Shown here piece after piece: positions 11,012 to 13,691 of a stretch of DNA of 37,949 bases (within the stretch, counting starts at the first letter, position 1; the number at the start of each line of letters is the position of its first letter). The position numbers were made by a program, and so were the translations under genes. Under the pieces are notes generated by a model. The model saw only the letters and a list, made by a program, of their open reading frames with translations, made no database searches and had not been told where the DNA came from. Source of the stretch: a virus (taxonomy: Duplodnaviria; Heunggongvirae; Uroviricota; Caudoviricetes); the IMG/VR virus record IMGVR_UViG_3300032214_000615. The stretch is one strand, 5' to 3'.

Positions 11012-11836
11012 ATGAGCAACAACCCACTTCAACAATATTTTCGTAGACCCGCAATTTACATCAAACTTCCAAGTCTTGGTAGATACTACGATGATACAGT
11101 GATTGAACGAACAGAAACAGATGAGCTTCCTGTTTACCCAATGACTACCATAGACGAAATCACTAGTAAAACTCCAGACGCAGTTTTTAATGGACACGCG
11201 GTAGTAGATATTATTCATAGCTGTGTTCCAAATATTAAAAACGCCTGGAAAATCAACACCATTGACTTAGACGCTATTATAGTAGCCATAAAGGTAGCCA
11301 GTAACGGAGAAAAAATGGAAATAGAGTCGGTTTGCCCTAGCTGCGAAACTGACGCTACGTATGATATCAATCTGATAAGCGTACTTAGTCAGCAAAAAAA
11401 TGTTGACTATGAGCGCACATTGAATTTAAGAGAACTGGAAATAAAATTTAAACCTATAACATACGCAGAAGCAAATAAAAATGGTATGGCTCAGTATGAG
11501 TTACAGAAATTTTTACAGGATCTACAACAAGCCGAAGAATCGGAAGAAAAACAAAATATGATTCGTGAAACCGTTGCTAAACTAAATGAAAAATTTTCCG
11601 AAATAGTAGGCGGAACCGTTGAGTATATTAAAACGCCAGACTGTACCGTTTATGAAGCCGAGTTCATAAAAGAGTTTTTAACTAAGTGCGACCGAAATAC
11701 AAGCACCGCAATTAGAGAACACAGTGTGCGATTAAAAAACGAAAATCAATTAAAGCCCTTAAAAATCAAATGTATGAATTGTTCACACGAATACGAACAA
11801 CAATTAGTACTGAATATCAGTGATTTTTTCGGTTAA
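11012..11836 (+). CDS. gp26: Baseplate hub / tail assembly chaperone (T4 gp26-like)
   Basis: NPLQQYFRRPAIYIKLPS N-terminus, YPMT, CPSC and CMNC motifs, ends in DFFG. Confidence 0.85.
   Translation: MSNNPLQQYFRRPAIYIKLPSLGRYYDDTVIERTETDELPVYPMTTIDEITSKTPDAVFNGHAVVDIIHSCVPNIKNAWKINTIDLDAIIVAIKVASNGEKMEIESVCPSCETDATYDINLISVLSQQKNVDYERTLNLRELEIKFKPITYAEANKNGMAQYELQKFLQDLQQAEESEEKQNMIRETVAKLNEKFSEIVGGTVEYIKTPDCTVYEAEFIKEFLTKCDRNTSTAIREHSVRLKNENQLKPLKIKCMNCSHEYEQQLVLNISDFFG
11824..11830 (+). promoter_or_regulatory. Putative -1 ribosomal slippery heptamer T TTT TTC
   Basis: In-frame X XXY YYZ two codons before the gp26 stop. The -1 frame is open from here to 12060 and closed by TGA (11821-11823) immediately upstream. 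Confidence 0.65.
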
Positions 11837-11862: not shown

Positions 11863-12060
11863 ATGAAGAAGCTGGGTGAGCAAATGTGGAATGATGCCAC
11901 TAGTCTCAAGGCTCTATCAATGAAGTTAGCTTGGTACACTCGTGGTTCAATGAGCTACGCAGATGTTCTTAACTTAAGCAAAGAAGAGATGGATCAGTTG
12001 AATAAACTAATAGACCAAAACTTAGAAACTACTAAGAAAACTAAGTTGCCTTTTTTCTAA
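11863..12060 (+). CDS. gp51-like baseplate hub assembly protein; possibly expressed as a frameshift extension of gp26
   Basis: KLAWYTRGSMSYADVLNLSKEE...LPFF; directly follows gp26 in the -1 frame; no clear SD before ATG 11863. Confidence 0.65.
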   Translation: MKKLGEQMWNDATSLKALSMKLAWYTRGSMSYADVLNLSKEEMDQLNKLIDQNLETTKKTKLPFF

Positions 12061-12110
12061 TATGTTTTTATAAAAATGGAACCTTGAGTTCGCCATAAGT
12101 CCAAAAAGAT

Positions 12111-12138
12111 TAACCGATTTTGATATCGGTTATTTTTT
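12111..12138 (+). terminator. Rho-independent terminator of gp26 operon
   Basis: TAACCGAT-TTTGAT-ATCGGTTA followed by TTTTTT. Confidence 0.75.
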
Positions 12139-12170
12139 AAGATAATGATTTAGATGAGTGTTTAGTTTAA

Positions 12171-12380
12171 GAATGGGTCGCAAGACCCATTCGCCAGTAG
12201 ACCTAACGGCTACTGGCCTTTTTCTTACTTTCTTTTACTTTAAGATTACTTTTCTTTGACTTCACATCTCAGATAGATGTGATAGATATTAATAAAAAGA
12301 AATTGTGTTGTTGTCAGCCGCAACGAGTGAAACGAGTTGTATGACAACAACACGGGTTGTTGAGTGAAACGAGACAACCC
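12171..12380 (+). other. Array of five near-perfect hairpins in non-coding DNA (candidate origin or ssDNA/RNA structure)
   Basis: GAATGGGTC-GCAA-GACCCATTC; GCCAGTAG..CTACTGGC; TCACATCT..AGATGTGA; GTGTTGTTGTCA..TGACAACAACAC; GGGTTGT..ACAACCC. The last two share the apex GAGTGAAACGAG. Confidence 0.8.
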
Positions 12381-12462
12381 TTGATACTAAGAAATATCTC
12401 AATGAAGAAATCTCATTTAAAAATATTCAAAAGAATCTTGTTTTAAGAATCTCCAAAGAAAA

Positions 12463-12880
12463 GACCTACAGTTCAAAAACCGCATGCTCTAGGACTCTTC
12501 ATAGTTTATCAGGCTATAGTTTTGATGCCATCACGCATCTATGTTGTTTTGTTCTCGTAACGTTTTGCATAACAGCCTACCTTCATTACACGATGGCTGA
12601 AACGGCTCTGCGCCGCGGCTCACAGTCCGGCTACACTCTCATCCAAGAGTGTCCTGACGATACATCAGGCCTATCACTTCACAACACACTAGACAAATCA
12701 TTTTACGCTGTTTATCACGATAAGCGGGAATCGGCGCAGTTGTAGCATTTGTAAGCTCTGATCCTCATCCATTTGTCGCCTGTTTATTCCCTTGGCTGTG
12801 TCTGCCGCCTATATCCGATACTGATATAGTGTTATAAATCCGTTGATCGCTTTCGTCCATATAACCGGGAGGGCTAGGTC
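12463..12880 (-). ncRNA. Candidate large structured non-coding RNA (~420 nt)
   Basis: No ORF of 60 aa or more; several hairpins whose G-U pairs form only on the minus strand; 8-bp long-range complement (12608-12615 / 12732-12739); 6-bp terminal complement (12463-12468 / 12875-12880). Confidence 0.6.
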
Positions 12881-13160
12881 AAAGCCCCTTTTTTTCTTTG
12901 CGTTCAGTAAAAAGAGATGGCTCTCTGCGCCTTAGCTCAGCGACTAAATCATTGAGTAAATGATCATCCTCAAAATTTAGTATAGCCCACTTGAGATAAC
13001 CGTCTGGTAAAGAACGATACTCCCAGTGTTTGTATTTTCCAAATCTCATTACTTTACGTCTTAGTGTTGGGTTTGCGTACTCTACTTTGGGTCCATTTAC
13101 AACTGGCTGTTTTGACAGACGTTTTTGTCTTGCTGCTCGTTGATAATTTAATTTTGCCAT
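12879..13160 (-). CDS. Small DUF3820/QSregVF_b-like protein with basic N-terminus
   Basis: MRFGKYKHW...SLPDGYLKW resembles the MPFGKYKG...lP..YL.W signature. Confidence 0.65.
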   Translation of the reverse strand: MAKLNYQRAARQKRLSKQPVVNGPKVEYANPTLRRKVMRFGKYKHWEYRSLPDGYLKWAILNFEDDHLLNDLVAELRRREPSLFTERKEKKGL

Positions 13161-13181
13161 AGTAGAGAGTTAAACTCATAG

Positions 13182-13691
13182 TTATTTTTTTGATAATGTT
13201 CTCACATTATCAATATTTAACTCAAAAAAACTCTCTAGTGAAAAAAGTATCCATCCTCCCCATTTCTTAGTTTTGTAACGTAGTGTATTACAATCTTGCT
13301 TCCACACTATAGTATCTTGTACAGCAACAAAGCGTCCACGACGATTTATCTTAATAAACAATATGTTTAGATCGTCACTATCAGCGGCGATCATTAGTTG
13401 TTCTATCCAATCTTCAAGTTGCTTACACTCTGTAAAAAGTTGATGAAATCCAAAATCAGAATAAAATTTGGCCTCGCAATTTAGTAGAGGGAAATTTTCT
13501 CCTGGGACAATATCTCCTTTGAAACTGCGAACTTGGTTTTCGTGTAGTGATTTGCGACGATAGCTGTTGCTACCACCAGTGTAAGCGCCGCTACCAGGAG
13601 CACGAATAAAAGATTCGCCGTACAGAGTACTTAAGTATTTGGCAATTTCCCTTTCAAATCCGGAACCTTTAATTTTGCTAGCAGAGGGCAT
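13182..13691 (-). CDS. Holliday junction resolvase (Hjc-like PD-(D/E)XK)
   Basis: SKIKGSGFEREIAKYL, GSGA, GDIVP and CEAK motifs; next to gp46/gp47. Confidence 0.8.
   Translation of the reverse strand: MPSASKIKGSGFEREIAKYLSTLYGESFIRAPGSGAYTGGSNSYRRKSLHENQVRSFKGDIVPGENFPLLNCEAKFYSDFGFHQLFTECKQLEDWIEQLMIAADSDDLNILFIKINRRGRFVAVQDTIVWKQDCNTLRYKTKKWGGWILFSLESFFELNIDNVRTLSKK

Follow-up and report, generated by a model that had tools for sequence, protein, structure and literature searches.

Large RNAs that fold intricately and lack a known function are rare, and new families of them have tended to reveal new RNA biochemistry. GOLLD and ROOL, which are carried by phages and prophages, are ornate RNAs of 400-800 nt with conserved A-rich junctions. 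Both have reportedly been examined in a cryo-EM study, and we know of no biochemical function for either.

Closer to the present locus in genomic position is the Polynucleobacter-1 RNA motif (Rfam RF01718; Weinberg et al. 2010, PMC2864571). Among 80 loci retrieved via the baseplate gene, 72 gave an nhmmer match, on the strand of gp46, to what we term the twin-box element; about 50 of these matches are near full length (~470 nt) and the rest comprise its 3' part only. The 141-nt RF01718 motif corresponds to the 5' third, the first ~140 nt, of this ~470-nt twin-box RNA, and it scores 69-112 bits in eight sister loci. The twin-box RNA is strongly covarying (alignments A1, A2 and A8; L005, L030, L036, L042, L053, L058, L061, L076 and about 60 more), and a 7-nt box occurs twice in its 3' domain; the two copies match within any one phage but vary from phage to phage, the variants including AGAUAAU, GGAUAAU, AGAUGAA, ACAUGAU and ACAUAAA. 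The PMC10690425 catalogue of phage structured RNAs describes motifs of 29-151 nt, each found in at least three IMG/VR regions; given this size range and this requirement, an entry there for the RNA described below is unlikely.

In this study, we examine an element of a different sequence at the same genomic position. The window, by which we mean the whole 37,949-nt stretch of DNA analysed, lies on a 101.7-kb IMG/VR contig from an uncultured freshwater T4-like jumbo phage (CheckV 29% complete), whose gp46 homologue has at most 40% identity to those of cultured jumbo phages. Contigs 98-99% identical to window 12250-13200 occur in aquatic, riverine and freshwater metagenomes from at least four studies, and the lineage is thus widespread in fresh water. 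Convergent gene sets lie on either side of a gap at 12061-12878 that holds no ORF of 60 aa or more (Table 1). An earlier note on this DNA had singled out positions 12463-12880 within the gap as a candidate folded RNA of the minus strand, describing the stretch as ORF-free and locally GC-rich. Both descriptions are accurate, the GC content being 0.47-0.49 against a local composition of ~0.36. The gene immediately upstream, the 93-aa ORF, has a weak QSregVF_b/DUF3820-like FGKYK..YLxW motif (18 bits, under the Pfam cut-off), and its TGA stop sits in the P1 loop, the first hairpin of the RNA. Its homologue was found in locus L180 only, and a search of IMG/VR for relatives of the 93-aa protein found none.

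Three independent metagenome homologues of the window RNA were obtained: L180/L172, L084 and L177. The first true relative, L084, came from loci retrieved via the PDDEXK gene, and a degenerate pattern taken from the block conserved between the window and L084 yielded L180, L172 and L177 in JGI metagenomes, L172 being the L180 sequence ended by a contig edge. The whole span 12455-12888 aligns to L180, L084 and L177, with 84% identity to L180 over about 443-444 nt; the RNA stretch proposed earlier stands, with ends slightly wider than first drawn. Two further IMG/VR pattern scans gave the L084 contig as the sole true relative, which indicates that the family is rare. Likewise, a model of the 5' half of the window RNA (R1), run on 98 sources (the window plus 97 loci), finds only the window, L180/L172, L084 and L177. 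A blastn search of window 12000-13200 against 50,697 cultured-phage records gave no match. In L002, the nearest relative by baseplate protein (75% aa), the flagged stretch has no counterpart by similarity, and the flanking hairpins alone are common to both phages.

Several other candidates were rejected. The single match of a 19-mer scan of IMG/VR, in L082, lies inside a GC-rich gene and is due to chance, as are the pattern matches in L173, L174, L178 and L181, all in coding DNA. L179 is a bacterial contig in which the match sits beside or over an ORF's 5' end, and it was excluded on context; its R1 score (11569-11645) is just 11.1 bits, with E = 0.43. Two unrelated viral contigs, L175 (2081-2215, minus strand) and L176 (2116-2221, minus strand), both contain the core GGCAGACNCAGCCAAGGGUAUAAAC and resemble each other over a longer stretch. 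Their R1 scores are weak, 13.6 and 16.8 bits, and biased, since the contigs were picked by the core pattern. They might be distant relatives of the window RNA and were left out of the homologue count.

Comparison of the window with L180 sets the RNA apart from its surroundings. Identity between the two phages is 67-73% in the baseplate, 93-aa, PDDEXK and gp46 genes, as against 84% in the RNA element, and the rest of the intergenic gap gives no alignment except for a 42-nt hairpin. The element is the best-conserved DNA of its neighbourhood in this comparison and these identities show purifying selection to be stronger on it than on the protein genes nearby. In all four phages it lies 3' of the gp46 operon, on the same strand and facing the baseplate operon. 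The gene immediately upstream varies, being a 93/98-aa ORF in the window and L180, the PDDEXK gene in L084 and a SegE-like GIY-YIG endonuclease gene in L177. The length from P1 to the pseudoknot is 426 nt in the window, 421 in L180, 357 in L084 and 294 in L177. The few variants among the 98-99% identical metagenome contigs fall in loops or change A-U to G-U; one of the latter, in P6b at 12757 in close relatives from other metagenomes, fits a minus-strand reading.

The same comparison bears on a coding explanation, in which recoding or read-through of four in-frame TGA codons would extend the 93-aa ORF to a 223-aa protein. Read with table 4, the frame is indeed open from 13160 to 12489, its only stops being TGA. 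In L180, however, the ORF stops at the same place, and every reading frame beyond it is interrupted, both by stops and by frame-shifting indels. The window phage uses the standard genetic code, with TGA as the stop of 29 of 91 long ORFs, Pfam gives no match past the 93-aa part, and substitutions track base pairs, not codons. The probability of this explanation is negligible; the TGA-only frame is a product of chance, refuted for practical purposes by the L180 frame breaks.

Helices were derived with RNAalifold from two, three and four sequences, and each was inspected by eye. Covariation was expressed as counts with shuffle and slide controls, for only four distinct sequences. In the 5' half (alignment A6), 16 of the 41 pairs changed on both sides and still paired; 95.1% of cells pair, compared with 32-43% after a shift of the 3' partners by 1-3 columns, and none of 500 shuffles attains the observed values. 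Over the full length (alignment A5; 101 pairs, 19 helices) pairing was kept through changes on both sides at 26 of 101 pairs, and 88.9% of cells pair, compared with 32-42% when slid; the observed values are matched by 0/500 shuffles on four of five measures and by 4/500 on the fifth. These full-length figures are depressed because L084 and L177 align poorly over the 3' half. The window and L180 taken alone differ by eight compensatory changes, seven one-sided changes that keep the pair, and three broken pairs. Helices P4, P12 and P13 are invariant across the four sequences.

Table 1. Features of the RNA element and its flanks in the window
Feature	Position	Strand	Remarks
Baseplate gene	11012-11836	+	Flank of the ORF-free gap; a 65-aa ORF is also on +
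gp47, gp46, NUMOD3 homing endonuclease (HE), PDDEXK nuclease, 93-aa ORF		-	Other flank
93-aa ORF	12879-13160	-	Final gene of the gp47-gp46-HE-PDDEXK operon; outside the RNA
Whole RNA element, ~430 nt	12455-12888	-	P1 through 3' U-rich tract; from alignment to homologues
P1, 5' hairpin GGGCU/AGCCC	12871-12887	-	C-G to U-A in L084 and L177
Pseudoknot 5' strand GACCU, in P1 loop	12876-12880	-	Pairs with 12463-12467
Domain I, four-way junction Pa/P2/P3/P4	12788-12870	-	Includes invariant CAGCCAAGGG
Pa	12867-70/12788-91	-	Encloses P2, P3 and P4; 1 covarying pair
P2	12859-65/12831-37	-	2 covarying pairs
P3	12823-29/12809-15	-	7/7 pairs covary
P4	12804-06/12794-96	-	Small hairpin of Domain I
Third AUAAAC	12782-87	-	Abuts P16 5' arm
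P16, long-range helix CAGGC/GCCUG	12778-82 with 12510-14	-	Brackets Domains II and III
Domain II, P5 enclosing P6/P6b and P7	12692-12777	-	
P5	12771-77/12692-98	-	2 pairs with compensatory changes
P6/P6b	12755-60/12737-46	-	P6: 3 pairs with compensatory changes
P7	12723-26/12706-09	-	1 pair with compensatory change
Box UGAUAAAC, copy 1, P7 loop	12710-12717	-	Identical in window, L180 and L177
Domain III, variable, P8-P15	12524-12688	-	Hairpins 12653-69, 12633-52, 12573-99, 12524-39
Box UGAUAAAC, copy 2, abuts P16 3' arm	12504-12511	-	In all four homologues
P17 hairpin	12480-84/12467-71	-	In all four homologues, with G-U/A-U changes
Pseudoknot 3' strand AGGUC, right after P17	12463-12467	-	Pairs with P1 loop
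GGUC then U-rich tract UUUUCUUU	tract 12455-62	-	Terminator-like 3' end with P17

All the helices listed in the earlier note are present in the sequence where it had placed them, and most are kept by the homologues. The hairpin at 12809-12829 is P3; CAGCC/GGCUG at 12573-12599 shows three compensatory changes, GAUGC/GCAUC at 12524-12539 an A-U to G-U change, and the abutting hairpins at 12633-12669 are kept in L180 with U-G to U-A. The contact proposed between the two termini, GACCU with AGGUC, is likewise kept in the four sequences. Its form is not a terminal helix but a pseudoknot that ties the loop of P1 to the 3' tail, the note having suggested in general terms that the RNA might be pseudoknotted; all 20 of 20 cells are paired, and a G-C to U-A change in L177 (UACCU with AGGUA) provides one compensatory change. 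Two other proposals failed. The 8-bp long-range helix CUGCGCCG/CGGCGCAG has lost its 5' partner in L180, which retains the 3' partner, and the ACAGCC near 12794, suggested as an alternative pairing partner, is really the 3' arm of the P4 hairpin. GGACU/AGUCC stays no more than a candidate pairing. In P16, L177 has CAGGU with ACCUG, as read by eye in that sequence, and L084 shows no clear pairing. Domain III is full in L180, shortened in L084 and reduced to a single hairpin in L177; relative to L180 it shows three compensatory changes in P14 and several wobble changes. An extra stem, UUAU/AUAA, inside the P7 loop is not conserved and was dropped.

The earlier note had set beforehand, as a point against a folded RNA, a folding energy no better than that of shuffled sequences, and this is what was found: the minimum free energy gave z = -1.07 for the minus strand and +0.11 for the plus strand, neither significant. 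Folding energy is a weak test for long RNAs, and the element was judged real despite it because the homologues show covariation. The comparative evidence supports the prediction of a folded, multi-domain non-coding RNA encoded at window 12455-12888 on the minus strand.

A conserved fold could in principle serve at the level of DNA, as single-stranded DNA folding in replication or recombination, for example at an origin or a recombination hotspot. The element lies between convergent operons beside gp46/47, DNA hairpins tolerate G-T wobbles, and a separate, unverified note proposes an origin in the adjoining hairpin array. An assembly of multi-domain junctions, long-range helices and a pseudoknot spread over 430 nt is, however, what one expects of RNA; the region is also rich in GC, not the AT-rich DNA of an unwinding element, and it has no iterons. 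We regard a role of the DNA itself as highly improbable.

The strand of the RNA was assigned from its wobble pairs. The minus-strand fold has 8 G-U pairs in the window and 6 in L180, compared with 0 and 1 A-C pairs, respectively (14 vs 1). Since the 14 G-U pairs would be C-A mismatches on the plus strand, the minus strand is the predicted RNA strand, in agreement with the original proposal. Plus-strand signals are also present. A promoter-like site lies at 12261-12290 on the plus strand, followed, by hand reading, by the two plus-strand hairpins at 12300-12380, and on that strand P1 takes the form of a terminator-like hairpin with a T run behind it (12871-12897). Together, the promoter-like site and the terminator-like hairpin would allow an antisense transcript over the whole element, and because P1 has this terminator-like form the element may mark the end of late plus-strand transcription too.

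The two hairpins at 12300-12380 have tandem G.A pairs in loops around a GAA/GNNA apex (GAGUGAAACGAG). G.A hairpins with covarying stems are found in L002, L180, L084 and L177 as well, on the strand of the baseplate gene every time. The Polynucleobacter-1-type and type C RNAs (see below) have the same G.A motif as their 3' end, there on the gp46 strand and directly ahead of a terminator hairpin. Other terminator-like hairpins, at 12111-12132 and 12167-12228, lie 3' of the 65-aa ORF, and the second of these blocks is kept in L002 (80% over 61 nt). Since this block is conserved, the late baseplate operon probably ends at these hairpins, upstream of the G.A hairpins.

An alternative reading of the element puts the functional RNA on the plus strand, as a transcript that begins near 12297, crosses both tandem-G.A hairpins and stops at the 12871-12897 terminator. 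It would account for the promoter-like and terminator-like sites, and for the plus-strand orientation of the G.A hairpins in the window, L002, L180, L084 and L177. Against it are the fourteen C-A mismatches that it would create, compared with a single A-C in the opposite direction, the positive z of the plus-strand fold, the degradation of the T run after P1 in L084 and L177, and the reading of the related RNA families, all of them on the gp46 strand. We consider such a transcript very unlikely to be the functional RNA.

Searches for known families support the earlier view that the RNA belongs to none of them. Rfam 15 cmscan at the gathering threshold gave no match in the whole window, the families covered including GOLLD, ROOL, HEARO, RNase P, SRP, 6S, tmRNA, group I/II introns and small ribozymes. 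The ribozyme families in Rfam had no match in the window either, and ARAGORN reported no tRNA and no tmRNA there. With E up to 10, nothing in Rfam falls inside the region, and only Arthropod 7SK overlaps its end (12794-12897, plus strand, 8.3 bits, E = 9.5).

The Polynucleobacter-1/twin-box RNA nonetheless resembles the window RNA in several respects. In freshwater T4-like phages it occupies the equivalent site, 3' of the gp47-gp46 operon and on the same strand, with the baseplate operon converging on it; it is similar in size (470 vs ~430 nt), multi-domain and covarying; and, as in the window RNA, a short A/U-rich box occurs in it twice. Its helix plan differs from that of the window RNA, however, and no sequence relationship was detected: RF01718 had no match in the window at E up to 10, nhmmer --max with a 19-sequence twin-box profile gave no match in the region, and R2, a covariance model of the twin-box domain run with filters off, found none in the window RNA or in that of L180, L084 or L177. 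The twin-box 3' end consists of a tandem-G.A hairpin and a terminator hairpin on the RNA strand, whereas the G.A hairpins of the window are on the opposite strand. As for the boxes, those of the twin-box RNA change jointly between phages; the two boxes of the window family are identical in the window, L180 and L177, show no joint change among the four homologues and in L084 are unequal, with UGAUCAAC in the P7 loop and UGAUAAAC in the second position. A role for the window box in promoter mimicry or as a pairing target was considered and discarded, there being no enrichment of the box or its complement in the genome. We have filed the window RNA as a separate predicted family, which has the position, size and character of the twin-box RNA in common with it, but not membership.

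Two further kinds of RNA occupy the same position in other phages. One, which we call type C, is ~430 nt long, follows the PDDEXK gene and was found near full length in 74 loci by nhmmer; 44 of its 87 predicted pairs show compensatory changes, with 54 G-U against 5 A-C (alignment A9; L085-L162 and L003), and it has no Rfam match. It shares slot, strand and size with the window RNA, and a PDDEXK gene precedes it, as in the operons of the window, L084 and L180. The type C nhmmer profile, however, had no match in the window, L084, L180 or L177, the R1 model of the window RNA found none in the type C loci, and type C ends in a G.A hairpin and terminator on its own strand, unlike the window RNA. 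The other, which has the look of a folded RNA, is a rare, GC-rich, ORF-free element at L002:5460-5786 (minus strand) and L083:3837-4164 (plus strand). The two copies are 93% identical, several of their few substitutions are compensatory in predicted hairpins, and they have no similarity to the twin-box, type C or window families. The resemblance to GOLLD and ROOL, which are likewise large, intricately folded and phage-borne, is one of kind only; we count as differences that no tRNA genes adjoin the window RNA and that it has no Rfam match to either family. The description of the RNA as novel thus holds for the family and less so for the kind, which is not wholly unprecedented, sister phages having other large RNAs at this locus.

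We think it probable that the element is a stand-alone, structured, ~430-nt non-coding RNA of the minus strand, putatively a trans-acting scaffold, the latter being at modest odds the most likely reading of its role. No promoter-like motif upstream of P1 is shared across the four phages, and the DNA there is coding in all of them, so the simplest origin is read-through from the operon. The RNA would be produced in this way from the gp47-gp46 operon and perhaps then processed. All four phages have P17 and a U tract at the 3' end, and the transcript would end there; as a terminator stem P17 is weak (5 bp). The closed, knotted fold would make for a long-lived RNA, which may work in trans, scaffolding a protein or further copies of itself. 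Its recognition surfaces would be the invariant single-stranded CAGCCAAGGG, ACAA, (U/G)AAAAU and the repeated UGAUAAAC box.

The main rival to a trans-acting RNA is a cis-acting 3' UTR, whose fold would do no more than shield the gp47-gp46 mRNA from 3' exonucleases or stop transcription where the late baseplate operon is met. The layout is compatible with such an element: the RNA directly follows the last ORF without a conserved promoter, it has a terminal hairpin and a U tract, and it stands at a convergent junction where P1 is terminator-like on the other strand. A stabiliser, however, requires one hairpin, not about 100 conserved pairs, invariant junctions and a pseudoknot that joins the ends. 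Nor would a 3' UTR be expected to be more conserved than the genes that it serves, or to stay while the upstream gene changes. The knotted architecture, the invariant junctions and the conservation above that of neighbouring genes lead us to favor an RNA that acts via its fold over a mere mRNA end, and we consider a purely cis-acting role unlikely.

A trans-acting window RNA may also be the functional counterpart of the unrelated large RNAs, Polynucleobacter-1/twin-box and others, at the same place in other phages. As far as sequence comparison can tell, the site behind the gp47-gp46 operon seems to be a single slot that different phages fill with large RNAs of unrelated sequence, and their recurrence suggests a shared task tied to early, recombination-phase expression. 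A stronger proposal, which we find doubtful and offer only tentatively, is that this is a dedicated slot for a needed large ornate RNA, in which, among freshwater T4-like phages, at least four families of no detectable kinship in sequence (Polynucleobacter-1/twin-box, type C, the L002/L083 type and the window type) replaced one another with one function kept. That function could be, for example, a self-assembling or protein-scaffolding RNA early in infection.

The window family is new: it is supported by covariation, absent from Rfam and located at a site of other unrelated large RNAs, one of which was only partly catalogued, as the unexplained Polynucleobacter-1 motif. If the families are interchangeable, their comparison would separate essential from incidental features, the candidate essentials being size, closed ends, repeated A/U-rich boxes and early expression with the recombination genes, and would offer several independent routes to the partner. 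Otherwise, the locus would be a hotspot for the acquisition of structured RNAs by phages.
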